A stretch of DNA of 64,000 nt from an uncultured Candidatus Saccharibacteria bacterium (GCA_964644035.1 CAZXUH010000001.1:259712-323711), one strand, 5' to 3'; counted from the stretch's first letter, positions 7,723-48,080 are shown. Numbers and translations are program-made. The notes: a model not told the origin generated them from the letters alone.

Positions 7723-7800
7723 ATATTGTGCGACGTTCTAAGGTCTTTTAAAAATGTGGAGTTATCCACACCCTACCCTACAACACCATACAACAAATCT
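7723..7800. repeat. Left copy of an imperfect direct repeat flanking the prophage (attL candidate).
   Basis: ATATTGTGCGAC (7723–7734) and AGTTATCCACA (7760–7770), plus a weaker ACACCA..CAAATC block. They recur with the same spacing at 48003–48080. Confidence 0.5.
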
Positions 7801-7906
7801 TTTGGCAATAACCCGACAGGTCAAACGATATTCAACAAACTTTCTTTCTGAATTAATTATATCGTTTGTGTTACATCAAGCAACAAACTTATCCCCACCT
7901 CCCCCA

Positions 7907-8770
7907 CTAGAGGGTGTACTTCTTCAAGACAGACAATGCTTCATTCCTATTCAACTTAATGTATTGGAACGCCGCACGTGGATTTTCTTCTGAATGTCCT
8001 AGTACAACCTGTAATTCTTTCACATCTGCACCATTCGCTAACATGGTGTGAGCTTTATAATGTCTGAAACTATGTGGTGTAAGCCTAGACAGTATACCGG
8101 CCTTTTTTCTCAATATCTCAATCCACCTTTCAACCGATCGTGGCGTGATTCTTTTTTTAATCCTGTAACTAATGAGAAGCGGATTCGTCTTTGTCAGGTT
8201 TTGCCTGATCTCAAGATATTTCAACAACATCTCATGTGTCTCTTTCCCCCACATTACATACCTCTCACTTCCATTTTTTTTCGTAACGACAACGCAATAA
8301 TTTTTGTCCTTATGAATATCGGAAATATTCAAGTCTGTGAGTTCGGAAACTCTCATGCCAGTATCTTTCATCATGTACAACGAAAGTTTTTTTAGAAGAT
8401 CATCATATGTCCAATCGTTAAGATATTTACACATTCTGTTTATATGATCTTCTTCTGCTACCGGCATTTTCTTTGGAAGGAACTTTGGAACCTTAATCAT
8501 GAAAGGATCGATCACTGTCTCCCCTTCTGACTTAAGGAACTTTATGAAGTCTCTGACAATGGTCACAATATACGAGACGTTTGACGGGGCGTACTTCGTG
8601 CGGATGCCGACTTGAAACTCCGACAGATTTGATAACCTTAGTTTTGCGACCTGAATGTCGCCAAAGTACTCTACGAGCTTTTTCAAGTTCGGTCGATACG
8701 AGTATGCTGCACGATTTGTATGGGCTGATTTCCATGTCAGATACTTCTCTATTGCGACAGTTAGTTGCAT
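7907..8770 (-). CDS. int: Phage tyrosine integrase/recombinase.
   Basis: C-terminal catalytic region 'HSFRHYKAHTMLANGADVKELQVVLGHSEENPRAAFQYIKL' carries the H-x-x-R, LGHS and catalytic Tyr pattern. It is adjacent to the left boundary repeat. Confidence 0.85.
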   Translation of the reverse strand: MQLTVAIEKYLTWKSAHTNRAAYSYRPNLKKLVEYFGDIQVAKLRLSNLSEFQVGIRTKYAPSNVSYIVTIVRDFIKFLKSEGETVIDPFMIKVPKFLPKKMPVAEEDHINRMCKYLNDWTYDDLLKKLSLYMMKDTGMRVSELTDLNISDIHKDKNYCVVVTKKNGSERYVMWGKETHEMLLKYLEIRQNLTKTNPLLISYRIKKRITPRSVERWIEILRKKAGILSRLTPHSFRHYKAHTMLANGADVKELQVVLGHSEENPRAAFQYIKLNRNEALSVLKKYTL

Positions 8771-8781
8771 CAGAGTAGTAT

Positions 8782-8809
8782 ACTTTATTGGGTGAACGTT
8801 CGTTCACTT
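8782..8809. promoter_or_regulatory. Perfect inverted repeat GTGAACGTTCGTTCAC plus a third CGTTCAC half-site, 12–40 nt upstream of the integrase start; operator-like.
   Basis: Palindrome read directly from the sequence; it sits over the int RBS/promoter region. Confidence 0.4.
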
Positions 8810-9090
8810 TTCCGTTCACCGGATTGTGGATAAGTACGACCTATAGCACAAAATCCCAAGGTTCTTAGGACTTGGGATGATAACCGATTAGTTATCTTAC
8901 GACTTGTGTCGCTTCTGGCATAGAGCCAGTGCGTAAACACATTATACACCTCACAGTTTTTCTATTATAGTGTCCCTGTGGGTGAATAATATGCTACGCA
9001 TCCCCATTGCTAAGAACGGCTTTTCAGCCTCAATGGAATATGTGTACAGGATATATCTATCACAGGCTAATTTTCCTGTCAATAGACTTC

Positions 9091-9471
9091 CTAACCCCAG
9101 CAAGGTTTGCTGGCATTCCAAGGTTTTGTTCCCTGCGATTCGTAAAGAATCTTTGCGTATTTAAGATTGTCATTGAGTTGTTCAATGTTCAATCCCATTT
9201 TTGTTGCAGAATCAAGGTGATACCTTTTGTTGATCTGCATGACACCAGTGTCATCAGGGTCTACTCTACCCTGTAACACGTTGCCATTTTTATCATACTG
9301 TCTGAATTGTGATTCACACCATGCGATTTCAGAAAGAATGGGAGTATCTTTATAATACTCCCTCACCCTTTCTTCCGTAGTCATTTCTTTTTTTGCGGGA
9401 GCGACTACGTAAGCCCCTTGGCTTGGTTCGGTTGATTCTGGTCCGCCAATAAGGCAGAACAGACCTAACAA
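9091..9471 (-). CDS. Small secreted lysozyme-like/transglycosylase-like protein (prophage copy).
   Basis: Signal peptide; 'CES..FR..DKNGNV..G.VD..DTGVMQIN.RYH' resembles the E-S...G-[LV]-M-Q lytic transglycosylase/Rpf-like catalytic region. It is about 65% identical to the chromosomal paralog at 48276–48755. Confidence 0.5.
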   Translation of the reverse strand: MLGLFCLIGGPESTEPSQGAYVVAPAKKEMTTEERVREYYKDTPILSEIAWCESQFRQYDKNGNVLQGRVDPDDTGVMQINKRYHLDSATKMGLNIEQLNDNLKYAKILYESQGTKPWNASKPCWG

Positions 9472-9586
9472 GCAAATGATAATCTGTTTTATACCTGTAA
9501 CTTAGGGAGTACGGAATATTCTCAGCTCTGTAATCCTCGTAGCGACACTACGGGGCAAGCTCTTGCAATGCAGTATAACCCGTTCG

Positions 9587-9802
9587 TTATTCAGCTCTGA
9601 AATACTTGTCCAAAGCAAGGAGTCCACCAGTGATACCAGCAGCTACACCCAAAACACCGAGTGTATTGAGGTTAGTAAAAAGGGATTGCCAAGTTGTTGA
9701 AGTCGTAAGTACGAGCGTCGATGTTGCACCGACAAAAGCCGCACCAAAACCTCTGACAAACCTTAATACCAGACTCTTTACCAAACTGTAATCATTGTTC
9801 AT
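9587..9802 (-). CDS. Small two-TM membrane protein (holin-like).
   Basis: 71 aa with two hydrophobic helices and a charged C-terminus, located in the lysis-proximal region. Confidence 0.3.
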   Translation of the reverse strand: MNNDYSLVKSLVLRFVRGFGAAFVGATSTLVLTTSTTWQSLFTNLNTLGVLGVAAGITGGLLALDKYFRAE

Positions 9803-9976: not shown

Positions 9977-10201
9977 TTAGTGTAGTTGCCCTGCGCAACC
10001 TTGCAGGCAATATTCCTTGACCCAATCAGGAAGTGCCTTGTAGCCTTCCCGATGCCATAGACGGTTTAATGCAGCCGCCCGATCTGCGGGATTTGGGAAT
10101 CCCTGACCTCTTGAGGCTTCATAGAACACCTGTTCGATGTACTTGAAGCCAAGACGTTTTGCACAGTCTGTGACTGTGTCTTGGACGATGTCTGGGAGCA
10201 A
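9977..10201 (-). CDS. Hypothetical protein.
   Basis: 74-aa ORF with balanced composition; an overlapping alternative-frame ORF (10066–10281) was judged less likely. Confidence 0.2.
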   Translation of the reverse strand: MLPDIVQDTVTDCAKRLGFKYIEQVFYEASRGQGFPNPADRAAALNRLWHREGYKALPDWVKEYCLQGCAGQLH

Positions 10202-10363
10202 GTTCCACCTCCAAAGGCGTTAGCCCTGTAAGAAGATGACTGTCGAGCAACGTATCTACGAGATACGTCAATCTTATTCATGTGACCTCCTAAAAAAGAA
10301 CTATCTACTTGTGAACGTCACAAGCAGGGTATAAGGGAATGGCGGCATTCCCCTACTCTCTGC

Positions 10364-11374
10364 CTACGAGTACAATTCTTTTAACTTTGCGGTTGTCTTT
10401 GGTCCGACTTGTCCTGTCTGTTCAAAGCCATACTTTTTCTGAAACTTTTTAACTGATTCAATAGTGATGCTTCCGTATACTCCACGACTTGTGACATTTG
10501 CTGGAAACACACCTTCATATGTAAGACAGTCTTGAAGTGATGCTGTGGAGCCTGTGTAGACTGGTTTAATATTTATGGGAGCCGCATCAAACTTGAAGTT
10601 GATTGGATACCTTGCGAGATAGCAACGGGCTTGGAAGAAATCACGATCGATAAGCTTCTGGTATATATTCTCCTGATCCGCTGAATCTTCGATCAAGATG
10701 TATTTCTTGTTGTCGTAGGTAAAAGCGTCGATAGCGGTAACATCATGTCCCCAAGGCTTATTTGTACCTGCAACTCTAGGATATTGAGTACCAAAGAACT
10801 CGTTTGGGCCGAACTGGAACCAAAGCTTGATCCCCTTCCCTGTCTTCTCAATAGTTGATGCGACAGTTTCAAAATCAATTGGCATCTCTACCCAATTTTC
10901 TGGAATAGCGAAAGCGTCTGCTGCATCTCTGTGGTATTGTTCGATTTTTGTTGAGTTGATCTGCGCCTCCGTCATACCTTCGCAAGGAAGCAGGTCGTAT
11001 AGAAGTGCTCCAGTGTTAGCAAGTCTGGCAATATCACTAAAAACCATACCTTCACTTGGTTTGTTAGCTCTCTGTGTGTAGAAAAATGCTGGAGAAAACT
11101 TAACAATTCTATCAGTCTTTAAGAAGTAAAGAATAGTGCATAGCTTTGATGTGCCATACGCAACACAAGCAGACGATGAGAATTGGTACTGGTATGGAAA
11201 CTTTCTCCACTGACTAGGTTGTTTTGCTTTAAACTCAGGTATGGAAGCAGATGCCACAGCTTCATTAAATTGGTGTACTGTAGATAGTTCCTCGCCCAAC
11301 CCTAAAACACCGAGAAATCTTTCTTTCTCTTTAGTCTTCGTTAAAAGATTTTTTATTGATTTAAATATATTCAT
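10364..11374 (-). CDS. Endolysin with a cysteine peptidase domain (CHAP/NlpC-P60/papain-like) and a C-terminal peptidoglycan-binding domain.
   Basis: Candidate nucleophile 'SSACVAYG' and His 'WGHDVTAID'. The C-terminal 'KKFQKKYGFEQTGQVGPKTTAKLKEL' matches the PG_binding_1 pattern. Next to a holin-like gene. Confidence 0.6.
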   Translation of the reverse strand: MNIFKSIKNLLTKTKEKERFLGVLGLGEELSTVHQFNEAVASASIPEFKAKQPSQWRKFPYQYQFSSSACVAYGTSKLCTILYFLKTDRIVKFSPAFFYTQRANKPSEGMVFSDIARLANTGALLYDLLPCEGMTEAQINSTKIEQYHRDAADAFAIPENWVEMPIDFETVASTIEKTGKGIKLWFQFGPNEFFGTQYPRVAGTNKPWGHDVTAIDAFTYDNKKYILIEDSADQENIYQKLIDRDFFQARCYLARYPINFKFDAAPINIKPVYTGSTASLQDCLTYEGVFPANVTSRGVYGSITIESVKKFQKKYGFEQTGQVGPKTTAKLKELYS

Positions 11375-11605: not shown

Positions 11606-13828
11606 TTAAATACCTGTTGTGTCTATTAATATCCATGCTGAACCATTCCAATAATAGAGAGGCATTTCTTGCCAACCACTTGAAACCGGTGATGGTGATG
11701 AACTTGGTGATACTGAGGATGACGGCGAAACTGAGCTGCTAGGACTATGTGAAACTGATGAACTTACCGATGACGAAACTGATGTAGATGGTGACACCGA
11801 TGAACTTGGAGAATGACTTATTGAACTAGATACACTGGACGACGCCGAACTTGAGACAGAAGAAGAAATAGAAGTACTTGGGCTAGTGCTGCTCGAAACT
11901 GATGACGAGACACTTGAAGATACAGAGCCTGCGATCTGGTAGCAAACCTTCATTGAAATGGAATCCACTTGGACTGTACCTGCTGGGTTTGCGTAATCTA
12001 CATTGACCTCAACTCCCTCAATAACTGCATCAACTGGTATAGAGAAACCAAAGTCAGTCATTGCTAGGTACTTACCAGTTCCCATGTTTCCGATGATGCT
12101 CCATCCAAAACCGAAGTTGCTTGCATTTATATCAGCCGGTGTTAAAGAAAGACCCCATAATTCTGTTGGTCCCCCGTACACCCTAGGACTTCCAGCTCCT
12201 GAAATAGCTACACCTGTATGTAGACTTGTACCCGAAATACTTCCTCCTACTATTAATTTTGCGCTATTATCAGTTGTTGATCCTGAAGCCCTTACTGCAC
12301 ATGTAGTTGAGGTTGATCCATTATCAGTTTTTGCATCATTTGGATTCAACCAATCGATAGTTCCGACTGTTGCATCATTTGCGGCTACGTTAGGAAATTG
12401 AAAGTTTGTGCATACAGACACTACGGAAGATGGTGACGGACTTACACTACTCGATACGCTAGTCGATGGAGAAACTGAGGAACTTGTCGAACTGCTGACC
12501 GAAGATGAAGTTGAGCTTGATACCGACGTTGACGGACTTACTGATGAGGATACCGAAGACGAAACGGAAGAACTAACACTTGATGAAACTGAGGTCGAGG
12601 GACTTACTGATGAACTTACAGAAGAAGAAACTGATGATGACACCGACGATGAAACTGAACTTGAAACCGAGGTCGAGGCTGATCCTGCTGCATCATATGT
12701 TGCATAGATCGAGGCAGTAAATAAGTTTACACCCGCACTCATTACCCAAGGAGATTCGGGGCTAGCGTACGTGACACTGATGTCATAGTATTCTTGATCT
12801 GATGTATTGTCGTAACTTATGTAGTAGCCTCTTGTGCCTGAAATATCTGCGGGATCACCCTGAGCATTTAATATGTATTCAGTTGCATCCGAAAAAGCTT
12901 CTGAACCCATAATGAACGTTTTCCAACCAAGGGCTTCTGCTTGATCTAGTCCGGTTTGTGTTGCGATTTGTCCATGAGTTCCTGTACCACCAGAGTCCCT
13001 TTCATTCATGAAAACTTTAACGTCAACAGCAGTAGAGCCTGTATCACCCCCCAAATAAGCATCAATGGCTGTGAGAGTTCCTGCTTCTGTTGTGAGAAAT
13101 GATGTACCAAAGCGTTCGCTTTCAGCTACACCAAAGCGTTCTGCGATAGCAATTTGAAGCGCACCAATACTTGTGTATCCAAACGTAGGGTCAACTGTTA
13201 CCGGAAATACTGCTTCTTCTAGAAACTTTTGAGGTACAGTGACAGTGAGTAAATCTACATTCTCGTAAATATTCAAATCACACCATGTCCTATTCCCCTC
13301 TGCATCAACTGCCTCTGGTCTATATATATGAAAAGCTTTACCAGTTTTGTATTCTTTACCAGCAGAATTATTTATACGTCCTTTAGTTTTGTGATACACA
13401 GCATAAGAGCCAACAGTGTTCTCAGGCTGCTTGAATCGTTTGGAATCGATTTGTTCTTGAGTAAGTGGCGGCTGGTAGAAGAAATCAAGTCCTTTTGTAT
13501 TAATTGTTGCGGTTAGAACATTGTTTTCAGGTATTTGCTTGAGGACCCATTCAAACTCAAAACCACCATCTTCACCGGCTTCTGGCTTTTCGTACTGATG
13601 CACTTCGTAATCAGGCGTAATGTACTTAATTACCCCGTCAGTCTCCTCGATAGTTGCATCTGGATGTTCCTCTGCTCGAAGTGAAAAGTTTACCTCGTTG
13701 TCCCATCTTTGAATCTTTACTTGGGGTTTGAAATCAATCTGCTTGTCATCACCTATAATGATCTCAATTTTATCTTTGGGATTGGACTTTACCTCTTTTA
13801 GAAATGTTGTGTCGTTTAATTTATCCAT
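11606..13828 (-). CDS. Tail fiber/virion surface protein with two long serine-rich repeat tracts.
   Basis: 740 aa. The N-terminal globular domain is followed by (SSSVSSSVSPSTSV)n tracts in the middle and at the C-terminus, and it sits beside the LamG fiber gene. Confidence 0.55.
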   Translation of the reverse strand: MDKLNDTTFLKEVKSNPKDKIEIIIGDDKQIDFKPQVKIQRWDNEVNFSLRAEEHPDATIEETDGVIKYITPDYEVHQYEKPEAGEDGGFEFEWVLKQIPENNVLTATINTKGLDFFYQPPLTQEQIDSKRFKQPENTVGSYAVYHKTKGRINNSAGKEYKTGKAFHIYRPEAVDAEGNRTWCDLNIYENVDLLTVTVPQKFLEEAVFPVTVDPTFGYTSIGALQIAIAERFGVAESERFGTSFLTTEAGTLTAIDAYLGGDTGSTAVDVKVFMNERDSGGTGTHGQIATQTGLDQAEALGWKTFIMGSEAFSDATEYILNAQGDPADISGTRGYYISYDNTSDQEYYDISVTYASPESPWVMSAGVNLFTASIYATYDAAGSASTSVSSSVSSSVSSSVSSSVSSSVSPSTSVSSSVSSSVSSSVSSSVSPSTSVSSSTSSSVSSSTSSSVSPSTSVSSSVSPSPSSVVSVCTNFQFPNVAANDATVGTIDWLNPNDAKTDNGSTSTTCAVRASGSTTDNSAKLIVGGSISGTSLHTGVAISGAGSPRVYGGPTELWGLSLTPADINASNFGFGWSIIGNMGTGKYLAMTDFGFSIPVDAVIEGVEVNVDYANPAGTVQVDSISMKVCYQIAGSVSSSVSSSVSSSTSPSTSISSSVSSSASSSVSSSISHSPSSSVSPSTSVSSSVSSSVSHSPSSSVSPSSSVSPSSSPSPVSSGWQEMPLYYWNGSAWILIDTTGI
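11653..11905 (-). repeat. Coding tandem repeat (Ser/Val/Pro/Thr-rich tract, C-terminal) of the fiber gene.
   Basis: Nucleotide-level tandem repetition of Ser codons; likely slippage-prone. Confidence 0.6.
12418..12718 (-). repeat. Coding tandem repeat (central poly-Ser-Val tract) of the fiber gene.
   Basis: About 100 aa of SSSVSSS repeats; the antisense strand reads as an acidic DELTDE artefact ORF. Confidence 0.6.
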
Positions 13829-13829
13829 A

Positions 13830-15437
13830 TTAGTCTAGGAAAACTTTTAGAGGTGCTTTGATCCAAGTCAATCCGTTAAATCGATAAAGAGTTCCGCCAT
13901 ATAGACTTGCTGACGGTGATGAGCTGGGTGAACCAGATATAGAAGAACTCACAGAGGTTGACGGACTCACTGAGCTACTTACAGAGCTGGAAACCGAACT
14001 TGAAATACTGGATGAAACCGAGGTTGAGGGTGACACAGATGAAGACACAGAACTGCTCACAGACGAGCTTACAGAGGTCGAGGGACTCACTGATGACGAT
14101 GGTGAATGACTTATACTGCTCGATACGCTCGTTGACGGACTTACTGAACTTGAAGGTGACGAGGAGATCGAGGAAGAAACGGACGTGCTCGGTGAAGATG
14201 AAACAGAAGAAGATATAGAAGTCGATGGAGAAACTGAGCTGCTCACTGATGAGCTAACCGAACTACTTACGGATGAACTTACCGAACTTGAAACTGATGT
14301 GCTTGGTGAAACTGACGAAGATGGAGAGCTGCTGATGGATGAAGATACTGACGTTGATGGGCTAACGCTCGAAGAAACCGAACTCGACACGGAGCTAGAT
14401 ACACTGGAAGAAACAGATGTTGATGGAGAGACAGATGATGAAACGCTGGACGATACCGAGGAACTTACCGAAGTTGAAGGGCTGACAGAACTACTTGGTG
14501 AACTTGATACCGACGAAGACACGGATGAAGACACCGAGCTGGACACTGAACTTGAGACAGACGACGAGACAGAGCTGCTAACGCTTGTTGAAGGTGAAAC
14601 GGAAGAACTAACACTTGATGAAACGCTCGTACTTGGAGAAACCGAGCTTGAAGGAGAGCTACTGACCGAAGATGAAACAGAAGTTGAAGGACTGACGCTT
14701 GAACTTGGCGAAGATGATACTGAGGATGAAGGCGAACTGCTTACCGATGAAACTGCAAGTGGATATGCTAGACCAGCACCACCATTATAAAGAGATGTAA
14801 CTTCCGCATCTGAAAGTTGTCTGCTCCATATACCTACTTCGTCGATGTATGCATTCGAAAATGCGGCCAGAACGTTGTCTGATCGATCAGCACCAACAAC
14901 AAAGTTGTTAAATGTTGTTCCACTCGTACCAGCACCTGAACTGGCTTGCGTTCCTCGATTGACACCATCTGTATAACCAGTAATAGTTGATCCGTCATAT
15001 GTCAGTACCAAATGATGCCAGCCTGCCGTTCCGAGCGTAATGTTGTATATAAAATTGTCTTGAGCGACACCCTTCTTCAAACGTGAGAAGAATAGACGAC
15101 GAGTACCACCATTATGCTGATAGATAATGTAATAACCGTTTTTATTCGTAACACTTTCTTGAAATATAAAAGTCTGTTGGCTGGCCGCAATTTCAGTTCG
15201 CATCTTGACCCAGAGCGACATAGACATTGCGCCTCCTGTAATACCCATGTTTGCAGCACGTGTGAGACTCTTGTTGGTATTAGCCGTGCCAAAGTCTGCA
15301 CCATTGTTTATAAGTGCGGCAGCAAAACCAACGGTGTTGTTGTTGGTTAGTGTGAGAGCTGCGCCGGAAGAATCGGCTGGGTTGCCGCTTGATTCGTCGA
15401 GCTTATAATATGCTAATAGGTTTGTTGTTAACGCCAC
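13830..15437 (-). CDS. Tail fiber/receptor-binding protein with an N-terminal LamG (concanavalin-A-like lectin) domain and a ~300-aa serine-rich repeat.
   Basis: The N-terminus 'LLAYYKLDESSGNPADSSG...LVLTYDGSTITGYTDG...IDEVGIWSRQLSDAEVTSLY' is the LamG pattern common in phage fibers. It is followed by (SSSVSSSVSPSTSV)n. Confidence 0.65.
   Translation of the reverse strand: MALTTNLLAYYKLDESSGNPADSSGAALTLTNNNTVGFAAALINNGADFGTANTNKSLTRAANMGITGGAMSMSLWVKMRTEIAASQQTFIFQESVTNKNGYYIIYQHNGGTRRLFFSRLKKGVAQDNFIYNITLGTAGWHHLVLTYDGSTITGYTDGVNRGTQASSGAGTSGTTFNNFVVGADRSDNVLAAFSNAYIDEVGIWSRQLSDAEVTSLYNGGAGLAYPLAVSSVSSSPSSSVSSSPSSSVSPSTSVSSSVSSSPSSSVSPSTSVSSSVSSSVSPSTSVSSSVSSSVSSSVSSSVSSSVSSSVSSSPSSSVSPSTSVSSSVSSSVSSSVSPSTSVSSSVSSSVSSSVSSSVSPSTSVSSSISSSPSSSVSPSTSVSSSVSSSVSSSVSSSVSSSVSPSTSISSSVSSSPSTSVSSSISSSPSSSVSPSTSVSSSISHSPSSSVSPSTSVSSSVSSSVSSSVSPSTSVSSSISSSVSSSVSSSVSPSTSVSSSISGSPSSSPSASLYGGTLYRFNGLTWIKAPLKVFLD
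13884..14765 (-). repeat. Coding tandem repeat (about 295 aa poly-Ser-Val-Pro-Thr) within the LamG fiber gene.
   Basis: Highly repetitive Ser codons; the antisense acidic ORF 14185–14790 is an artefact of this tract. Confidence 0.6.
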
Positions 15438-16357
15438 TTTTCTATCTCAGTTTCTGTCCATCCCGTAACTGGTGAAAACTTTTCTATGAGCCATGCCAGA
15501 GGATACTTTTGTAAACTCCAGCTTCTATCTTTAAATTGATTAAGGACTGTCTTCTTGGCGTGTTCTGTTTGTCGTCCTGATATTGGATATGGGAATCCAA
15601 AATCATTTGCTGCTTTTGTTCTGAACATGTGTGCGTACCAAGTCGTGTGATTGACTACTACCCTTCCTCCTGAGAGCCATGTCTTACATGCCACCTCTAT
15701 TCCTTGAGATCCCCAAGAACCAAGAGCCTCATCACAAATATTGAGTTCCCAATATTTTTCTCTGGTCATAAGAAAACAAGAACCTTGGATACTCATTGAA
15801 TCCGTGAGATCACCTCCATACCCTTCTCGTTTGGTGTACTCATTGAAATATTGGAAGTGTGGTTCACTATCAAAGCAAAATGAATTGCTTTCTGGCCTTC
15901 TCTTGGCAATCCACACAATGTCCTTAGTCATTATCTTTCCGCACTTGTCGCACTTAGAACCTTTGTCCTGATATTTCCTTTCTCCGCACTCACAGACCCA
16001 ATCAAAGGCGTGTAGGTTTCGCATTGTAGGAACCATAGTCCAATCGTCCTGCATCTTCTCGATCAACTTCCTATCAAAGCCCTTATCGAAAGCACAATGA
16101 GCGTCTACCTTCACCACATACTTTGCTTGTGAGAGTTTGCAGGCCAAATTGGTTGCTGCTCTCTGCCCAATACTTTCAGGAAGATAGATGACGTTTACTC
16201 TTTCATGTTGAGGGATAGCTGGATTAGCCCACTGCCCATCTAGAACAACGATTACTTCTGTATCTGCTTCAATATTGGATACAATATCCTCAATCGTTCT
16301 CGCTAAAAATTCCTCGTTGCGAGCAGGAATCAGAATACTTAAATCTCTTGCTGCCAT
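15428..16357 (-). CDS. Family 2 glycosyltransferase (GT-A) with a C-terminal Cys-rich (Zn-ribbon-like) region.
   Basis: N-terminal 'LSILIPARNEE...VIVVLDGQW' GT2 signature. Paralogous to 18120–18899 (both have the 'HC[AS]F[DG]KG[FY]DR' motif). C-terminal 'CECGER...CDKCGK'. Confidence 0.65.
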   Translation of the reverse strand: MAARDLSILIPARNEEFLARTIEDIVSNIEADTEVIVVLDGQWANPAIPQHERVNVIYLPESIGQRAATNLACKLSQAKYVVKVDAHCAFDKGFDRKLIEKMQDDWTMVPTMRNLHAFDWVCECGERKYQDKGSKCDKCGKIMTKDIVWIAKRRPESNSFCFDSEPHFQYFNEYTKREGYGGDLTDSMSIQGSCFLMTREKYWELNICDEALGSWGSQGIEVACKTWLSGGRVVVNHTTWYAHMFRTKAANDFGFPYPISGRQTEHAKKTVLNQFKDRSWSLQKYPLAWLIEKFSPVTGWTETEIEKWR

Positions 16358-19657: not shown

Positions 19658-19674
19658 CGAGTTTTTTGCCTCTA

Positions 19675-40076: not shown

Positions 40077-40912
40077 TTTGTCTCTGCTCCCGTAAGGAGA
40101 TTAAACCATCGTGTTCTGAGTTTTTCGTATTCTATGAAGTAGTCTCCTTCCCCATATTTTTCATTCATCGATACTCCCCTTGCTTCTTTTTGTAAGTTGA
40201 TAAATGGATCACTTGCCCTGTTGTGATGAACTGTAGCGTATCCGGTGACAGCAGCCCAACCTCTCGCATCTATAACTTTCTTCACTTCTATACCACTCCA
40301 TATATCTGCAAAACGATTAATGTTTCCATACATAGGAGCTTGGTAGAAGTACGGTGTCAGTTCTCGCTTAAACGCCACGTTCATAATGCACATAGGAAAG
40401 AGTACTCCCTTAGGGATAGGCATTCTTCGAGGAGTGACCTCAGGTGTTCCGATAACTAACTGAGTTGAAGCATCGAAGTCTGCCACTCCTTTCCACGCAC
40501 CATGAGATAGGACACATTCTGATTCATCTCTGAGGCTGTAAGGGAAACCTCGCATAAATACTTCATGGACTGTATTCATCCATGATATAGGGTATTTCTT
40601 TGAAAGAGCATCTAGGTGATCTTGAATTGTATCCCCATCTGGCAGAACATCGTCGTCAAGGGAGATGATAATATCCGCACCATCTTTGTATGCTTGATAG
40701 AAACCAAGATTACGGACACCATCATTGAAGTTGTAGATAAGGTCCTTATCCTTCCCCATCACACTCTCAAGTGTCGTACCATTCACAGTTGGATTTTCTC
40801 CATCTTTGACAATGTACAAACTGACGTTATGTTTTTTGAATAGAGATTCCCACGCCTCAAGAAACTTTTTAAGCTGTTCTTCCCTAATCGTCGGTACGAC
40901 GACTGCTATCAT
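40073..40912 (-). CDS. Reversibly-glycosylated-polypeptide/UDP-arabinopyranose-mutase-like (GT75-like) protein.
   Basis: The N-terminus 'IAVVVPTIREEQLKKFLEAWESLF' matches the RGP family 'IVIPTIR...FLE.W..FF' signature, and a DxD-like 'LDDD' region is present. Confidence 0.4.
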   Translation of the reverse strand: MIAVVVPTIREEQLKKFLEAWESLFKKHNVSLYIVKDGENPTVNGTTLESVMGKDKDLIYNFNDGVRNLGFYQAYKDGADIIISLDDDVLPDGDTIQDHLDALSKKYPISWMNTVHEVFMRGFPYSLRDESECVLSHGAWKGVADFDASTQLVIGTPEVTPRRMPIPKGVLFPMCIMNVAFKRELTPYFYQAPMYGNINRFADIWSGIEVKKVIDARGWAAVTGYATVHHNRASDPFINLQKEARGVSMNEKYGEGDYFIEYEKLRTRWFNLLTGAETK

Positions 40913-41024: not shown

Positions 41025-41041
41025 ATTAGTGTATATATTAT
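41025..41041 (-). promoter_or_regulatory. Conserved phage extended -10 promoter, copy 6 (upstream of the GT75-like/glycosylation cassette 2 operon).
   Basis: Minus-strand reading is AAAAAATGGTATAATATAT (-10 = + 41027–41032). Confidence 0.5.
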
Positions 41042-41301
41042 ACCATTTTTTTATCTTTTTTCCTAAGACAAATTAGGCATATTTTCGAACCTTTTATAGC
41101 CACAAATGGGTTTCCACACTTAATACATTTTGGGTACTTCTTTTGCTTTTTCGTCACCACATATTCCTCTGGCGGTACAGGGTCCATGAATGGGGGTTTG
41201 AACTCCAGCAATGGTTTCTCAGGTACGATCTTAATATTTAGTAGGTACTTCTTTTTCATTTCAGTATCTGAGGCAATTCTGTAACTTTTCCTGTTGGCCA
41301 C
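41038..41301 (-). CDS. Small Zn-ribbon protein.
   Basis: C-terminal 'CIKCGN...CLICL' CxxC pairs. Confidence 0.3.
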   Translation of the reverse strand: MANRKSYRIASDTEMKKKYLLNIKIVPEKPLLEFKPPFMDPVPPEEYVVTKKQKKYPKCIKCGNPFVAIKGSKICLICLRKKDKKMV

Positions 41302-41990
41302 TTACCACAATTAATACACCAGTACTTCTGACGTGTTCCACTGATTGTTTTGAATGTACCTCTTTTCTGTAGTCGATCACTTCCACAATTAGGGCAGCAA
41401 TCTAACTGGTACAAGCGAGGATGGTTCTTGATCCAAGGACGAAGCTGTTTGTAGACCAATTCAAGTAACACCACATCTTGCTTGTTATACTTGACCATCT
41501 TTCTCCAAGATTCACTGTCACCATCCATACATCCTTTCCAAAGTCCAAATCCACCTGTTTCGTATTTCCTGCCGATTCCCAAATAATCCCCCAGATCATC
41601 CAGCTTGTTTGAATTAAACTTAAAGTTGTTTCTGGCTACCTTTAGAGTATCTACTGTCTGATACGGTGAAGGAGGTGTTAGGCCAGCTTTAGCGAAGAAA
41701 GCATTTACCTTCTTAATGTCGAAAGCGTCTCCGTTGTGAGCAATAACTACGTCTGCTTCATCGAGCAAGTCCCAAAGTTCTTTTATAAGTTCCTTGTCAT
41801 TGAATTTGTCCTTCTTGTACAGAGGAAAGTCTGGGAGTGAACGAGCGTGTACAAACTTTTCATCAAGCCATTTATAAGCGAATGAAAGCATACTGCCCTG
41901 TCTTACGTACTGGAGTACGTCCTGTTCATACTTACCCCAGATGTATCCTAAATTTGGTGATGTCTCTATGTCGAATAATAATATCTTCAT
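41256..41990 (-). CDS. DEDDy-type 3'-5' exonuclease (DnaQ-like) with a C-terminal zinc ribbon.
   Basis: Exo I 'LLFDIETSPN', Exo II 'VIAHNGDAFD' and Exo III 'YNKQDVVLLELVY'. C-terminal 'CCPNCGS...CINCGK'. Confidence 0.7.
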   Translation of the reverse strand: MKILLFDIETSPNLGYIWGKYEQDVLQYVRQGSMLSFAYKWLDEKFVHARSLPDFPLYKKDKFNDKELIKELWDLLDEADVVIAHNGDAFDIKKVNAFFAKAGLTPPSPYQTVDTLKVARNNFKFNSNKLDDLGDYLGIGRKYETGGFGLWKGCMDGDSESWRKMVKYNKQDVVLLELVYKQLRPWIKNHPRLYQLDCCPNCGSDRLQKRGTFKTISGTRQKYWCINCGKWPTGKVTELPQILK

Positions 41991-42016
41991 TTTTCATGGC
42001 CCCGTTTTTGTTATGT

Positions 42017-42337
42017 TTAATGTTTCTTCTTTAACAGATTGAAGTCTGGATAAAAGTAATCTCTGGTCTGCGTAACCCACTTGATCTTCCTGCAGTAATC
42101 ACACTTACCTTTATAATAGGTAGATAGATCAAACTTTGCTCTCTTAGGTTCTTGGCCGTGGTCCCTTAGGTATGTTAGGCGGTTAGCTTCAATACCGCAA
42201 TCGTCACAGACAATGGTAATGATCGAATCGGTATTGTTTGAATCCAATTCCCTTCGCATCTCCCTTTCTTTGAGGTCAGCCTTTATGACTTGGTGCTCGA
42301 AGATTGCATCTTTCTTTTTCTTATTTGCCTTTTTCAT
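42017..42337 (-). CDS. Hypothetical Zn-finger protein.
   Basis: 'CDDCG...C..C' motifs in a basic 106-aa protein. Confidence 0.3.
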   Translation of the reverse strand: MKKANKKKKDAIFEHQVIKADLKEREMRRELDSNNTDSIITIVCDDCGIEANRLTYLRDHGQEPKRAKFDLSTYYKGKCDYCRKIKWVTQTRDYFYPDFNLLKKKH

Positions 42338-42527
42338 CGTTTTTCCGTTTGATTATTTCTTTCTCGAGGTTTCGAAACTCCTGCTCGTTGAGATGTATGG
42401 TCGTGGAGGAACAGTCGTACGAAAGTGCGACTCGCTTCCTGTAAAAATTGATATTAAACACCCTGGAATCAACAACATTGTTCTTGAGCGTCACAACCTC
42501 ATCGATCTCTATTAAATTATCATTCAT
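42321..42527 (-). CDS. Hypothetical protein.
   Basis: 68-aa ORF. Confidence 0.2.
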   Translation of the reverse strand: MNDNLIEIDEVVTLKNNVVDSRVFNINFYRKRVALSYDCSSTTIHLNEQEFRNLEKEIIKRKNDEKGK

Positions 42528-42802
42528 ACCTTGATATTTACCTTAGCTAATTCCACGTCCATATCATCGACTGATATGTCTATGCCATGATACTCGTCCT
42601 TAGTGATGATCGTGGCGTCAAACAATCCCAGCTTTTCCGCCCATTGCTGAGCGTATTCGACACCTCCCCCTGACCATACATACATATGACAACCATGAGA
42701 CTGGAACCATCTGTAGAGGTCCAGCACGTCGTGTCTAGGCACTTCTCGGCCAGTGATTCCTTTCTTTATAAGAGTTGAGTCAACGTCAAATGCTATTCTC
42801 AT
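42524..42802 (-). CDS. Small HAD-like hydrolase-related protein.
   Basis: N-terminal 'IAFDVDSTL' DxDx[TS] phosphatase motif I; only 92 aa, so possibly a truncated or minimal HAD. Confidence 0.35.
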   Translation of the reverse strand: MRIAFDVDSTLIKKGITGREVPRHDVLDLYRWFQSHGCHMYVWSGGGVEYAQQWAEKLGLFDATIITKDEYHGIDISVDDMDVELAKVNIKV

Positions 42803-43028
42803 TTTTTATCCCCTTGTGTTTATCCGAACATTCCTGACACCAAGCCGATCCATTTCTCCTTTGGTTTTTACACCCTGAGTTTTTGGGGGTAAAAATATAG
42901 ACGGAGTTTTTTTCATCATCCTTAGTAAGCTCAAGTTCAAAGAAACCATTTTTACAAATTATATTCTTTTGAACACTCAGATCATGCCAACCTTTCTTTT
43001 CTGCTAACGTTCTTTGATACGATTCCAT
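42786..43028 (-). CDS. Hypothetical Cys-containing protein.
   Basis: 80 aa with 'CKNQ...CQEC'. Confidence 0.25.
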   Translation of the reverse strand: MESYQRTLAEKKGWHDLSVQKNIICKNGFFELELTKDDEKNSVYIFTPKNSGCKNQRRNGSAWCQECSDKHKGIKNENSI

Positions 43029-43031
43029 AAT

Positions 43032-43313
43032 TTACATGTTTTTTCTTAATCCGATACTCTTAAGTGTCCCCAGAATCCTTTTTATTTCTTTCGACATTCT
43101 AATAGGAACGTAAGGTGCGAAATGGATTGTTCTAGTTCTATCTGTAAAGAGGTCATAGTGAAGATTTATTCCTTTAGAATCTTCGATATATGCATGAAAC
43201 CTACCATCTCGATCCTCACGAATATAATCACCCCTTGATGACTTTTTTCTGTAACCAACAATTCTTAGGGCAGTAAGTGCATTAACTTTGTACTTCTCAA
43301 GTCCAACTCGCAT
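43032..43313 (-). CDS. Hypothetical protein.
   Basis: 93-aa ORF. Confidence 0.25.
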   Translation of the reverse strand: MRVGLEKYKVNALTALRIVGYRKKSSRGDYIREDRDGRFHAYIEDSKGINLHYDLFTDRTRTIHFAPYVPIRMSKEIKRILGTLKSIGLRKNM

Positions 43314-43314
43314 G

Positions 43315-43647
43315 TTATCTACTTATTTTGTTATTAACGTACTCATAAGCTGCTATGTTGAAGAAGACTGCTGCAGCGTGATCCTCGTCTACATCTCCTT
43401 CTGCCCACTGGAAGAAGTGACGGTAGGCTGATGCCCTAAAACGATTCATTTCTTCTTCTGAGTTGGCCAACTGCCAATTCCTTTCCCCGTACTTCACTGC
43501 GCCTCTAGCATAGAGTTCAGCAATCCTTTTAAGCATAGGGACCGGAATAAGATCGTAGCGAGGTTTATCATCTGCCACATCACGATTCATCCCAGACTCA
43601 AACTTCACACGTTTTCCAGAATCCTTAGTTAGATACGTAGTAGGCAT
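43315..43647 (-). CDS. Phage-associated protein resembling the N-terminal domain of dATP/dGTP diphosphohydrolases.
   Basis: 'RYDLIPVPMLKRIAELYARGAVKYGERNW' matches the conserved RYDLIP...GA.KYG..NW core of that domain family. Recalled from memory, not searched. Confidence 0.35.
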   Translation of the reverse strand: MPTTYLTKDSGKRVKFESGMNRDVADDKPRYDLIPVPMLKRIAELYARGAVKYGERNWQLANSEEEMNRFRASAYRHFFQWAEGDVDEDHAAAVFFNIAAYEYVNNKISR

Positions 43648-43828
43648 AACTCCTTGGTATTACTTTGTTAATTTTTCCTTTCTTTAAACCTTGACCACAA
43701 TCAGGACAACCCTGTCCTCGACACGCAAGCTTCCAACAATTACAGATAAACATCACGCCTTCCTTTTCTTTAGACTTCAGAGATAATATTGGAGATTTTT
43801 TCTTTGTAATAATTAATTTTTGACTCAT
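43625..43828 (-). CDS. Small Zn-ribbon protein.
   Basis: 'CNCWKLACRGQGCPDCGQ'. Confidence 0.25.
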   Translation of the reverse strand: MSQKLIITKKKSPILSLKSKEKEGVMFICNCWKLACRGQGCPDCGQGLKKGKINKVIPRSYAYYVSN

Positions 43829-44192
43829 ATTCTAATTGGGTAAATTCTTTTGTAATCTTTCCCTTGTATTGATTATCTTTGAACCTTTCGTACAAGGAAT
43901 CTGCTGTACCTTCTCCAAACCTCCTATCAAGCTCATACTTGTATCCGACAGAAGCATCTGGGGTCCATTTAGGGTTATTACACCTTTTGCACTGTGCGTT
44001 GACATTCTTCTCGTCAAATAAAAGACCAAACCCACAATGACCTGCCGCAATATAATGACCAGCATCACAGAGTTTCCAGTGAGCTAGGGGCAAACCACAT
44101 GAGACACAAGTCCCATACTTGTAGTAGTCACGCATCCGGATGAACTGACTGAACACTTTCCAGAACTTTCCTTTATTTCCTTTGTATCTCAA
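43770..44192 (-). CDS. NinG/HNH-like zinc-binding nuclease-related protein.
   Basis: 'C.SCG...CDAGHYI.AGHCG...DEKNVNAQCKRCN' Cys/His pattern resembles NinG-type recombination proteins/HNH nucleases. Confidence 0.35.
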   Translation of the reverse strand: MRYKGNKGKFWKVFSQFIRMRDYYKYGTCVSCGLPLAHWKLCDAGHYIAAGHCGFGLLFDEKNVNAQCKRCNNPKWTPDASVGYKYELDRRFGEGTADSLYERFKDNQYKGKITKEFTQLEYESKINYYKEKISNIISEV

Positions 44193-45538: not shown

Positions 45539-46519
45539 TTACAATCTTATTTTTTCATTTTGTAATTATCGACCAAGGCGCACTCCCCACTTTTCCTTCT
45601 GATAACCAATATGAGGCCAAATACTTACTGCTCTATATCTCTACTTCTTCCTCTTATATCTAGAATAAAAAAGGCGCAATTTATTTTTTTAAGATACAGA
45701 TCAGACGGCTCGGACAGAGTGGTCAACTGTTTTACCGAGCTTTCGCATCAATACCCTAAAAAAACTTTTGTTTTACAGACATTTTTGTTTGAGATGAACA
45801 AGGACCGTGGGGTGAGCTACTCTCCCCTTTCTTAAGCACCGGTTAACGCCGAAGCGTAAAGGACTTATACCTTTAGTGCTATGCATGGCTCAATGCACGG
45901 TCTTTATTCACCTCACGGAGATACACCTGACTACTCCGTTCGTATTTGACAATGTGCCTTGATAGGCATGTGTGACCCGTAAACTTTTACTGACCCCGTA
46001 TACAAGGCGTGGAAGACTTTATGTTCGTCTACCAGTTGACGAGTCGCATCTGCTTACCAAGTTCCGTTTTCACGGGTGCTATGGATAGGAGTCGAACCTA
46101 TCTTTGACCACTCACAGCGGGCGGGGTTTTTGTCCTGATCCGTCGATCAGATTTTGTCCCCCTCAAAACGATAATGGTCTCTATTGTTCGGCTGGTTGTA
46201 CTACCAGCTAAGACTCTCCGATCTTCTGAACTCGTCGGTCCTCGGAGCAATAAAGATGCCCTCACGTCGACTTTTTGATGTACTTGTTGCTTTTCTTCTT
46301 CTCCCTTAGACTCACTATTTGTCCATAACTCGCAAGAAGAAGACCGTCCATTCTTTCGGCTATAGCTTCTGAAAATTTGACATGGAAGCCAACAAGTGAC
46401 TGGTACTTAACCGCCAGCGACTCCTTCTTTGGCTTCCTTCTCCTTATTCTTGTTGCCATAGTTTGAGAGCTAAAGCCCTCATCTCTACCCCCGTTCTCGC
46501 TAGGGGCAGGATGATGGTT

Positions 46520-47131
46520 CTAGAAAGGTATATCGTTAGGATCGATTGTCGCTCCGGACACAGCATCCTTTGAGACAAATCGTGCTTGGTATTCCTTAGA
46601 AGACTTGATCTTCTTCTGGATGAACTCGGGCAAGTTAGTAAAGATGTCCTTATCCCAATGACTGAATGAGAGTACTTTGGGAGCATTGAATGCTGGAGGA
46701 CATACTTGGTCATCCATGAGAGGCATAGCACCTTCAATGTTTGCGTATGTCTTCTCACCCTTACTTTCGTGGACCACACGAATGAGGCAGGCCTTTCCTA
46801 CCACATCTTCTACATCAAAGGCATAGGCTTCATCTTCTGTGAAATGAACGTCTAACATTCCTTCAATAAACTTTCGGAGGTATGCTTTCTCACCCATTGA
46901 TAGTGTGAACTCAACTGAAATAACCATAGGCTTCATTTCTTCCTTTTCTCCAAACGCTTTAAGCTTTGTAGGAAGTTCAAATCCTAGTCTGATTTTGTAG
47001 TATTCTTTTGGCTGACCTTTCCATTCACCCTGAACTGTTCCAATGTTAATAAGTTCAAAGCATCGAGCCATGTGTGTTCCTTGTGGAACTAACTCATATG
47101 ATTTTTCTGGTCTTGGTGCGTGCGTAGGCAT
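46520..47131 (-). CDS. Hypothetical early protein (possibly an ssDNA-binding/annealing accessory protein).
   Basis: 203 aa with no confident motif; it is the first sizeable gene at the right (early) end. Confidence 0.3.
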   Translation of the reverse strand: MPTHAPRPEKSYELVPQGTHMARCFELINIGTVQGEWKGQPKEYYKIRLGFELPTKLKAFGEKEEMKPMVISVEFTLSMGEKAYLRKFIEGMLDVHFTEDEAYAFDVEDVVGKACLIRVVHESKGEKTYANIEGAMPLMDDQVCPPAFNAPKVLSFSHWDKDIFTNLPEFIQKKIKSSKEYQARFVSKDAVSGATIDPNDIPF

Positions 47132-47135
47132 GTTT

Positions 47136-47417
47136 TTATTCTTCGTATTTAATGTTTAGTAATTCTTCTATGTCTCTTTCTTCTGATTCGGTCTTTGGAG
47201 AGTATTCAGGTTCTGCACCATCATCAAATCCAGGTATGTAATCTGGCGAGTAACCTAGTTCCTCTGCAATTTGGATGAGATAAGGATTTTTTCTTCCTTT
47301 AGCAATTTGCTTTTGGAGATACCTTTCTTTCCATGAAATTGGTTTCTGTGCGATTGTTGGCATTTTGTTATAGACCGTAGTCGTTAACCTTGGCGTTAGT
47401 AAAGTCTGATTCCTCAA
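47136..47417 (-). CDS. Hypothetical protein.
   Basis: 93-aa ORF. Confidence 0.3.
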   Translation of the reverse strand: MRNQTLLTPRLTTTVYNKMPTIAQKPISWKERYLQKQIAKGRKNPYLIQIAEELGYSPDYIPGFDDGAEPEYSPKTESEERDIEELLNIKYEE

Positions 47418-47646
47418 AGTCTGATCGGATTCTTTCCGCTACTTTCTTTAGATTCAATCTTTCAATGAGCTTTTCTTCTGGAGTTTTAAGTCTCCACATG
47501 ATTTCTCCGTCAAACTCTCCTGTTACAACCACTTCGTTTCTGTCGTACCTCATACTTTTATATTTATGCTCTGCGTGTCTTAACGTGGTGTGTTTTGTTT
47601 CTGTCGTCCCAGCCGCTTTGCGAGAGGCCGAGGCGACAGAACGCAA
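47368..47646 (-). CDS. Hypothetical protein.
   Basis: 92-aa ORF. Confidence 0.25.
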   Translation of the reverse strand: MRSVASASRKAAGTTETKHTTLRHAEHKYKSMRYDRNEVVVTGEFDGEIMWRLKTPEEKLIERLNLKKVAERIRSDFEESDFTNAKVNDYGL

Positions 47647-47896
47647 AGCTATCTAGTAATTTCGACTTCTTGTCTTCCAACAATGTAGTCACCAGCTTTT
47701 CTTACTGCGGAAGATAGAACTATCACCGCAATACATACAATGAGGATGATATTTGCCGTTCTATTCATCCTCTCCTTCTTGAACTTATCGACTTGCGATA
47801 TGTCAAAATGTGTGTCCATATGTTATTTCTATTAATTTGGTTTGACCTTGAAGTGTTTTCACACTCCAAGCTGATGAGATCGGGGGAACTCAACAG

Positions 47897-47931
47897 TTGG
47901 GAAAGAAAAAAGACCCGACATAAATCGGGTC
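47897..47931 (-). terminator. Intrinsic terminator (minus-strand orientation) near the right prophage boundary.
   Basis: GACCCG-ACATAAAT-CGGGTC hairpin followed, on the minus strand, by TTTTTTCTTTCC. It lies downstream of the chromosomal lysozyme-like gene. Confidence 0.5.
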
Positions 47932-48002
47932 ATTTCTCAAAATTTTTTCTGGTTTTAGTCTAAGCGTGGAAGTATTTAACGACAGAATGGCTCTCTAAAG
48001 CC

Positions 48003-48080
48003 ATATTGTGCGACACTACCATAGCTCTGCCCTCAAGAAGTTATCCACAGGTACCTTATTACACCACAAATCACTTTTCA
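48003..48080. repeat. Right copy of the imperfect direct repeat (attR candidate).
   Basis: ATATTGTGCGAC (48003–48014), AGTTATCCACA (48039–48049) and ACACCA.CAAATC, colinear with 7723–7800. Confidence 0.5.

Follow-up and report, generated by a model that had tools for sequence, protein, structure and literature searches.

How a phage comes to occupy one particular position in a bacterial chromosome, and whose recombinase placed it there, are questions raised by a 64,000-nucleotide stretch of DNA from an uncultured Candidatus Saccharibacteria bacterium (GCA_964644035.1 CAZXUH010000001.1:259712-323711), referred to here in its full length as the window. An earlier note on this DNA, made from the sequence alone, had described between positions 7,723 and 48,080 a podovirus-like prophage of about 40 kb, bounded by an imperfect direct repeat of about 75 bp in which it saw degraded or ancient attachment sites. 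Comparison with other assemblies of the same strain and with related loci establishes that the prophage is an insertion of 40,280 bp that is intact, recently mobile and polymorphic within one strain, and we consider it probable that this element is a temperate podovirus that was integrated at a dif-like palindrome by a Xer-like recombinase of its own. Two points missed in the note are that the host belongs to the candidate phyla radiation (CPR) and that the attachment site is a deeply conserved palindrome, predicted to lie at the replication terminus.

The evidence for the insertion comes from same-strain assemblies in which the island is absent and window position 7734 is joined directly to 48015. 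Three Logan contigs (from SRR14271360, SRR14271361 and SRR14271354) were recovered by exact-protein look-up of a 73-aa gene at 7401-7622. One of these, SRR14271360_3045 (L001), consists of window positions 1-7734 with 0/7734 mismatches followed by 48015-57902 with 1/9888 mismatches, and the other two (L002 and L003) have the same join and are identical throughout their lengths. In these contigs the 73-aa gene is followed by 373 nt and then by the 159-aa gene found in the window at 48276-48755, a conserved gene resembling soluble lytic transglycosylases (SLT-like), and it is between these two genes that the phage is inserted. The empty site that the note had proposed to look for thus exists, and its join falls at exactly the island-edge coordinates.

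A 12-bp exact core, ATATTGTGCGAC, is duplicated at the two ends of the insert (7723-7734 and 48003-48014), and these are its only copies in the window even with one mismatch allowed. The empty site, attB, reads ...CATATAGA GTCGTAAAAGAT ATATTGTGCGAC ACTACCATAGC..., in which the GTCGTAAAAGAT and ATATTGTGCGAC segments together form a 24-bp imperfect palindrome. The left junction, attL (7711-7734), retains this complete site, identical to attB in the three empty-site contigs, and then continues into GTTCTAAGG..., while the right junction, attR (47991-48014), is a hybrid in which the phage left arm, CTCTCTAAAGCC, precedes the core and ACTACC... follows it. A full palindrome at attL and a hybrid at attR place the crossover inside the shared 12 bp or at their edge, where conservative site-specific recombination inserted the phage. 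The reconstructed attP runs from the phage right end through CTCTCTAAAGCC and ATATTGTGCGAC into the int-side arm (the P' arm) and int, the junction reading ...CGACAGAATGGCTCTCTAAAGCCATATTGTGCGACGTTCTAAGGTC...; homologous contiguous attP sequences are held by the relatives L065, L067, L076 and L078, and alignment of the window attP with that of L065 (34/39 positions across the junction, E 1e-9) validates the ends independently. Since the flanks of lysogen and non-lysogen are near-identical and the phage genes are intact, the element must have moved recently, and since it is polymorphic within a single strain, an ancient or degraded prophage is excluded. Intactness is evident from full-length open reading frames (ORFs), from protein lengths that match those of relatives and from an integrase in which all catalytic residues are kept. 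The GC content of the phage (41.8%) is close to that of its flanks (42.5%), and the prophage makes up 7.1% of its 568-kb source contig.

What kind of site was used can be approached from the distribution of the palindrome, the consensus of which is GTCGYAAAAGRTATATTGTGCGAC. Its layout, GTCGYAAAA-GRTATA-TTGTGCGAC, is that of two arms and a short center. With at most 3 mismatches it is present in about 20 of 30 Parcubacteria gltX loci, always in the same orientation and at one syntenic position 1.5-6 kb downstream of gltX-M23, where it is followed by genes shared with the window (the SLT-like gene, a 104-aa gene, rpmA, rplI, ctp, corA, cysS and dnaB). At this intergenic position 22-24 of the 24 bases are kept even though the GltX proteins of these loci are only 41-57% identical. 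An exact-pattern scan of metagenome contigs found the palindrome in at least 120 of them, some as long as 0.34-0.91 Mb, with one copy per contig and no contig listed twice.

The palindrome also coincides with a change in strand composition and gene direction. In 17 genome loci, the last kilobase to its left has a GC skew of +0.097 (positive in 16/17 loci) and the first kilobase to its right one of -0.124 (positive in 0/15), and at third codon positions there is an effect of side (-0.098±0.019) but none of coding strand (-0.002±0.019). Gene orientation converges on the palindrome, with 143 plus-strand and 17 minus-strand genes on the left and 22 and 68, respectively, on the right. The same synteny and the same skew switch recur in the independent set of at least 120 metagenome contigs. 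A dif site is defined as a unique, deeply conserved two-arm palindrome at a switch in skew and gene orientation; as the sequence considered here combines these properties, the 24-bp palindrome is most likely the Parcubacteria dif, situated at the replication terminus. XerC arms are similar to the conserved right arm, TTGTGCGAC; a Vibrio motif for comparison is given in PMC12715192. At one metagenome locus (L113, ERZ795052 NODE-1044), a 309-aa XerC/XerD-like recombinase is encoded 284-1213 nt to the left of the site beside a GyrA/ParC-like gene, its best families being XerC and XerD at 243 and 239 bits, both below cut-off. The arrangement of this locus resembles the xerS-difSL and xerH-difH modules. 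A literature search found no paper on dif in CPR bacteria.

The enzyme encoded by the phage is of the corresponding type. The tyrosine integrase gene (7907-8770, minus strand) specifies a Xer-sized, Xer-like protein of 287 aa (PF00589, 95 bits; phrog_1), in which R140, K165, H233, R236, H259 and Y270 are invariant in the alignment, so that the catalytic set of a tyrosine recombinase is complete. Its best NCBIfam hits, the XerA, XerC and XerD models (137, 124 and 123 bits), stay below their cut-offs of 220, 335 and 330, and by its sequence the protein is best described as Xer-like rather than as a member of a curated Xer family; it is 30% identical to the Xer-like protein beside the site in L113. 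As the earlier note had stated, the integrase abuts the left end, the gene lying 172 nt from the core.

A consistent linkage of enzyme and half-site is seen among relatives. In 8/8 distinct elements, with Int homologues of 33-53% identity that could be placed in contigs, an exact copy of the 11-mer GTCGCACAATA, which is the core in reverse complement, occurs 128-430 nt downstream of int, where the chance of finding it is about 1e-4 in each case. Four of the relatives (L065, L067, L076 and L078) are in attP form with the order lysin, int, P' arm, core, terminator and early genes. In attP the right arm and part of the center are kept, and the left arm is divergent (CTCTCTAAAGCC, CTCTATAAAGCC, TACGTTAAAGGG and others). 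A different kind of cargo is found in L071/L072 (ENA GROS21 scaffolds), a defense island with a 40%-identical Int (int 10001-10945, site 11374) that carries genes for a type I restriction-modification system, a ThsB-like TIR protein, a PD-(D/E)XK nuclease, T5orf172 and an S49 peptidase. This island occupies the syntenic site beside M23-gltX-murG-ftsW-scpBA in another CPR genome, and its attL is again the full palindrome. A search of IMG/VR for Int relatives by peptide patterns found none.

Some further observations touch on the same pairing. Contigs with Bacteroidota-type genes (Por_Secre_tail, SprB, conjugation-like and restriction-modification genes) encode Int homologues of 36% (L200/L201) and 33% (L202) identity, and the exact GTCGCACAATA lies 142 and 133 nt after int, respectively, with L200 matching the CPR site over 17 nt; the presence of the half-site in these contigs indicates that the pairing of integrase and half-site extends past the CPR. 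Of the 92 sites among the metagenome loci L080-L199 whose right flank extends for at least 1 kb, 1 (L150) has an integrase-like gene where the window has int, from which it follows either that occupied sites are rare or that assemblies break there. In L004 (10249), L024 (12696) and L029 (2505), the main site has extra half-sites 0.2-1 kb to its left, made up of a divergent left arm and ATTGTGCGAC and, in L004 and L024, extending to ATATTGTGCGAC; these could be scars of past integration or accessory sites.

Taken together, these features suggest a route of integration in which the Xer-like tyrosine recombinase of the phage, encoded beside attP, would recognize the conserved XerC-like arm and catalyze the exchange. 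The complete palindrome regenerated at attL would leave an intact dif for the host. Because the polarity of attP is fixed, the single-strand gene array would always be placed co-directional with replication of the right replichore. In the circular form, an intrinsic terminator (47912-47931, minus strand), which in the prophage lies just inside the right end, would directly follow int and attP, and integration would part it from int, which might allow differential control of the kind known from lambda sib. In L065 and L067, too, the core is followed by terminator-like hairpins at this place.

Several other explanations of these observations have to be considered, one being that no integration took place and that a free phage genome was misjoined into a host contig during assembly. 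Only one contig on record has the prophage-bearing configuration: in a cluster look-up, the phage proteins are found on a single 568,144-bp contig and a flanking host protein on five, and exact-protein look-ups of Int and of the major capsid protein (MCP) gave no returns. Both junctions, however, are exactly the hybrids predicted from the empty attB and the natural attP of relatives, a repeat of 12 bp would not be long enough to cause a misassembly, and the same attL is seen in other elements with the same Int family, all of which makes a chimera extremely improbable. The empty site refutes the old, decaying prophage with diverged repeats of about 75 bp proposed in the earlier note. The two 75-bp regions are indeed alike only in part; the flanks of the empty site, however, differ from the window by 0 and 1 mismatches over 7.7 and 9.9 kb within one strain, the ORFs and integrase are intact, and the right-hand half of the supposed repeat belongs to the host and is found in the empty site too, only the 12-bp core being duplicated. 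A question of a different kind is whether the palindrome is a dif at all, or some other conserved cis element that an integrase family has adopted as attB, candidates being the site of a replication-termination protein or a hairpin or terminator between convergent operons. Sequences immediately outside the 24 bp are frequently complementary, pairing on the plus strand stays G-U-compatible in the C/T and A/G variants, the site is bordered by convergent transcription units, most genomes have no xer gene beside it and its identity to canonical dif is only moderate. Terminators, in contrast, keep structure and not 22-24 of 24 bases across genomes with gltX 41-57% identical, and an element of this kind sits poorly with a single site per contig of up to 0.91 Mb, a strand-independent skew switch exactly at the site, a layout of two arms and a spacer typical of tyrosine recombinases and targeted by Xer-like enzymes, and the adjacent Xer-like gene in L113. 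We therefore regard a site other than dif as unlikely.

If the site is dif, the recombinase could still be that of the host. The integrative mobile elements exploiting Xer (IMEX) are integrated at dif by host Xer recombinases, and were the phage a true IMEX, its own Xer-like gene might serve another end, such as resolving multimers of the phage genome or assisting at the divergent arm as an activating partner. The structure of attP, with one dif arm, part of the center and a degenerate second arm, is like that of TLC-phi and the gonococcal genetic island, which use host XerCD, the centers of attP and attB are not fully identical, as in the single-strand-exchange pathways of IMEX, and the Int sequence is Xer-like. 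On the other side, int directly adjoins the half-site in 8/8 elements, as in the usual module of int and attP, the catalytic set of Int is complete, and published dif-targeting IMEX are defined by the absence of an integrase (PMC12715192), so that integration by the host Xer, alone or together with the phage Int, appears unlikely. Integration of an intact temperate podovirus at a dif-like palindrome by its own recombinase is thus the reading we prefer, with a number of findings that weigh against it or its parts. Of the about 6 central positions, 2 differ between attP and attB, a mismatch that fits the classical two-step exchange of tyrosine recombinases poorly. The exact 31-nt attP junction of the window phage has no match in IMG/VR. 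In the window's own host the change in skew is weak (-0.013 versus -0.045), and the terminus is inferred from ±9 kb around the site only. Framed as 11-6-11, the palindrome is identical at about 17/28 positions to the reverse complement of Escherichia coli dif. Family scans of the phage recognized neither a repressor nor an excisionase (Xis), and the MCP is assigned by position, as profile and sequence searches with E up to 5 gave no family, Pfam or Protein Data Bank (PDB) hit.

Comparison with known systems illustrates how features of several of them are combined here. Sites used by the IMEX TLC-phi and the gonococcal genetic island have one conserved and one divergent arm and regenerate dif upon integration (PMC5357621, PMC12715192), and dif-targeting IMEX are by definition without integrase (PMC12715192). 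If the site is dif, the window phage shares with these and the further examples CTX-phi, VGJ-phi and the dif-type double-jelly-roll (DJR) vibriophages a dif-type terminus palindrome as target, an attP that mimics one arm and part of the center, and an intact site at one junction and a hybrid at the other. IMEX are mostly filamentous or DJR phages or islands of Proteobacteria, in contrast to a 40-kb tailed double-stranded DNA podovirus with a CPR host that encodes its own Xer-like tyrosine recombinase beside attP. As in lambda-type integration, int adjoins attP, a short identical core is present at attL and attR, motifs are repeated in the int-side arm and a terminator beyond attP would be parted from int, as at lambda sib. 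Unlike the lambda-type enzymes, the 287-aa Int has no recognizable arm-binding N-terminal domain, its target is a palindromic recombinase site and not a tRNA gene or an ordinary intergenic site, and no Xis or repressor was recognized. Likeness to the single-recombinase Xer systems (XerS/difSL, XerH/difH and archaeal XerA/dif) lies in the similarity of the two arms of a fairly symmetric site, suggestive of one recombinase species, and in the Xer-like gene beside the site in L113; the site differs in that most Parcubacteria loci have no adjacent xer and in that its sequence is unlike difSL and difH.

A broader proposal is that the palindrome is a previously undescribed dif of the Parcubacteria/Paceibacteria that, with the terminus, is used as a principal integration hot spot of these minimal genomes by a guild of elements with their own Xer-like integrases, a pairing also present in Bacteroidota-type contigs; on balance we lean toward it by a narrow margin. 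The guild would comprise a widespread lineage of 38-41-kb podophages, other CPR phages and defense islands, in effect IMEX with a private recombinase, and if the proposal is true, a half-dif attP would be a signature linking uncultured phages to CPR hosts. A CPR prophage as such is not new, since PMC12455944 describes Paceibacteria prophages of about 44 kb that carry methylase and glycosyltransferase genes. Those prophages have the same host group, a similar size and similar auxiliary genes; in the portion of that text searched, they differ in that no att sites, integration target or integrase are described ("integrase" and "attachment site" having 0 occurrences). What appears to be new is the definition of base-exact att sites together with the empty site, the identification of the integration target as a class-wide terminus palindrome, the targeting of this palindrome by a tailed phage, other phages and a defense island with their own Xer-like integrases, and the occurrence of the same half-site with distant Int homologues in Bacteroidota-type contigs.

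Several implications follow. The window provides one of the few CPR phage-host pairs with base-exact attL, attR, attB and attP and a natural lysogen/non-lysogen polymorphism. If the site is dif, integration at dif, so far a trait of filamentous and DJR IMEX without an integrase, would be extended to a tailed phage and to defense islands with a Xer-like recombinase of their own. A predicted dif and terminus for a large uncultured class would help in closing and orienting metagenome-assembled genomes (MAGs), in estimating replication rates and in studying chromosome segregation in organisms with minimal division machinery. With the half-site beside int as a simple marker, phages and islands from metagenomes could be assigned to their hosts.

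A further feature of the junctions is the second of the two exact blocks on which the 75-bp repeat had been based. Both blocks are present, the first being the att core, as proven by the empty site. Block 2, AGTTATCCACA, lies at 7760-7770 and 48039-48049, at a start-to-start distance from the first of 37 nt on the left and 36 nt on the right; the note had correctly seen a difference of 1 nt and had given the spacings as 38 and 37. A plain local alignment of the two 130-nt regions recovers only the first block and AAAG. When the 120 nt following each core on the right are compared by banded local alignment, the score is 27, a value reached by 2/5000 dinucleotide shuffles and by 0/5000 real segments of the window, so that the likeness past the core is non-random as well; the note's estimate of about 1e-4 for a chance occurrence is reasonable in this light. 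The left copy of block 2 belongs to the phage P' arm (7735-7906, minus strand, between core and int), which is missing from the empty site; the right copy (plus strand, 24 nt right of the site) is host DNA, present in the empty site.

Within the P' arm, block 2 forms part of a motif, GG(T/G)G(T/G)GGATAA(C/G)T on the int strand, which occurs there twice (7760-7770 and 7885-7899), and the copy at 7760-7770 sits in a hairpin with a T-run (7750-7771, minus strand) downstream of int. Comparable copies in the P' arms of L065, L067, L071/72, L076 and L078 indicate a conserved feature of these elements, and the GGGGATAACT-type motifs are probably accessory or regulatory sites. Block 2 also holds a perfect DnaA-box consensus, TTATCCACA, a 9-mer with three copies in the window, each of them beside int or attB. 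Among the hosts, two have the exact motif 23-24 nt beyond the right edge of the palindrome, namely that of the window and L016, and a C-rich run resembling TTCCCC takes this position in many of the rest. Judged by its sequence, block 2 could be a binding site for an accessory protein or for DnaA, or could have a role in int regulation or termination.

The host can be placed from the genes that flank the prophage. Close relatives of its GltX (41-57% identity) all come from Patescibacteria/Parcubacteria MAGs, which identifies it, on protein similarity, as a Parcubacteria-type bacterium of the Patescibacteria (CPR). The left flank encodes MraY, FtsW, MurG, GltX and the M23 peptidase, and the right flank L27, L9, Ctp, CorA, CysS, DnaB, RecR, L21 and RmuC. 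The 159-aa SLT-like host gene (48276-48755, minus strand) is present in the empty-site contigs, is not of the phage and has syntenic orthologues in L005, L006, L016, L021 and L038. It is 58% identical (blastp 5e-48) to a small SLT-like muramidase of the phage (9091-9471, minus strand; weak PF01464 match), and the two genes have the same orientation relative to the core. An origin from the remains of an older, related prophage was considered for this gene and for the host-side block 2 and was rejected, the gene being syntenic in at least five divergent Parcubacteria; given this synteny, the pair looks like the outcome of gene exchange between phage and host and not like a prophage remnant.

The phage itself represents a lineage that is widespread but unnamed. 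Homologues of its MCP and of its tail nozzle protein number more than 1,740 and 1,519, many on contigs of 37-41 kb, the best non-self hits being 85% and 65% identical, respectively, and the module from terL to a 902-aa protein is syntenic in IMG/VR relatives. By megablast, 16 kb of the structural module matched none of 50,697 GenBank phages. The PHROG and Pfam scans behind the gene assignments covered all ORFs of at least 80 aa. The description of the region in the earlier note as a podovirus-like prophage of about 40 kb, entirely on the minus strand, holds for every supported gene, a few small plus-strand ORFs being without support, and with it stand the int, terL, portal, fiber and peptidoglycan-binding lysin genes of its list; terS is weak, and the MCP, scaffold and holin are assigned by position.

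In order of transcription from attR, the array begins with small early genes and DNA-metabolism genes (41256-44192) that comprise NinG (43770-44192), a dATP/dGTP diphosphohydrolase-like protein (43315-43647) and a DnaQ-type exonuclease (41256-41990). These are followed by a cluster for sugar and methyl transfer (37626-40912; two glycosyltransferase-like genes, Methyltransf_24, an unknown and an RGP-type glycosyltransferase), the weakly supported terS (36488-37045; phrog_51, 2e-8; PF03592 below cut-off), and tRNA-Asp(GTC) (35828-35900) and tRNA-Gly(TCC) (35553-35624), both found with ARAGORN and Rfam between terS and terL. A mechanically called ORF at 35262-35615 shares its 5' end with the tRNA-Gly and must therefore start later or be no gene. 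The head module consists of terL (33787-35265; phrog_38, 3e-58), the portal (31803-33716; PF23899 SU10_portal, 41.3 bits against a cut-off of 30, with 25 IMG/VR relatives at 51-67% identity), the scaffolding protein (30127-30870, assigned by position and conserved between portal and MCP in 17 relatives) and the 403-aa MCP (28879-30090, placed by position and conservation), the AlphaFold model of which is unusable (pLDDT 44.5). Next come the head-to-tail adaptor (28200-28835; PF24175 SU10_adaptor, 31.6 bits, cut-off 27), the 634-aa tail hub or nozzle protein (26295-28199), a 514-aa fiber with a phage tail-collar domain (24690-26234; PF07484, 78 bits; phrog_9116), the 502-aa and 902-aa large virion proteins (20473-24690; internal or ejection proteins by position, conserved in relatives, without family hits) and a collagen-repeat tail fiber protein (18907-19602; PF01391; tail-fiber PHROGs). 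A second glycosyltransferase/methyltransferase cluster (15428-18899; GT2, two unknowns, Methyltransf_11, GT2) precedes two fiber-like proteins of 740 and 535 aa (11606-15437) with long serine-rich SSVSSSVSPSTSV repeats, the latter with a Laminin_G_3 lectin domain. The left end carries a 336-aa lysin with a C-terminal peptidoglycan-binding domain (10364-11374; PF01471, 37.8 bits; endolysin PHROGs), a 71-aa membrane protein (9587-9802) that is a holin candidate from the hydrophobic segments of its translation and has no family hit, the small SLT-like protein and int. All of these features are on the minus strand.

A podovirus-like, short-tailed morphology is supported by the SU10-type portal and adaptor domains, by the predicted fold of the nozzle and by the lack of tail tube, sheath and tape measure among the proteins detected. 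The model of the 634-aa protein, built from 20 homologues (pLDDT 82.9, pTM 0.81), finds as its best PDB matches with Foldseek only podovirus tail hubs and nozzles (Pa223 at 1e-14, cyanophage A4, P22 gp10, Sf6, VP1, SU10 7z47_G, T7 gp12 and crAss001), the podovirus tails covering an E range of 1e-14 to 1e-9. At the sequence level, nozzle and portal have no PDB hits. The PHROG and Pfam scans gave no hits for tail tube, sheath, tape measure or chaperone, in agreement with the earlier note, a negative that is weaker evidence in so divergent a phage. The order portal, scaffold, MCP, adaptor, nozzle and fibers or internal proteins is that of SU10 (Kuravirus), P22 and T7, and the portal and adaptor are of the SU10 type, with a nozzle model that superposes on P22 gp10, SU10 and T7 gp12; the phage differs from these in a nozzle identity of 6-11% to solved structures, in having no T7-type polymerases, in its host-type promoters and in being temperate. 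The T7-like character suggested earlier survives in the tail gene order only: the scans gave no hits for a single-subunit RNA polymerase or a DNA polymerase of the phage, the sole replication-type gene being the 244-aa exonuclease, and membership in the Autographiviridae was rejected on this ground. A lytic domain in the 902-aa protein, also claimed, was unconfirmed by Pfam and was dropped, a SleB-like YGE...LNR motif being visible by eye only.

Host-type extended -10 promoters, TGGTATAAT, precede the late operons on the minus strand at 20073-20090, 26267-26284 and 30971-30988. They belong to a repeated ATATAATTATACCATATT-type motif, found on the same strand upstream of late and middle operons at these three positions and at 19643-19667 and 41037-41061, which reads as the extended -10 promoter; a similar promoter stands before the host gene at 48755.

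The phage genome includes two methyltransferase genes and four to five glycosyltransferase-like ones, three of the latter with Pfam support, and one of the clusters is embedded between fiber genes, adjoining the 740-aa and 535-aa repeat proteins. The combination of transferases and SSVSSSVSPSTSV repeat proteins suggests glycosylated fibers or modification of the host surface. The host organism is thought to live attached to other cells, and the six to seven sugar- and methyl-transferase genes, with the two serine-rich repeat proteins, make the phage a candidate modifier of the cell surface.

In the early region, about 730 nt on the minus strand (45540-46270) are without a convincing ORF. They gave no Rfam hit with E up to 1, no tRNA or tmRNA call, no blastn match in the fetched loci and no exact 24-mer in IMG/VR. 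The segment is predicted to fold with a minimum free energy of -233 kcal/mol (z = -6.65 versus shuffles) and contains a tRNA-like T-arm, GAUAGGUUCGACUCCUAUC, which makes it a candidate for a new large structured RNA.

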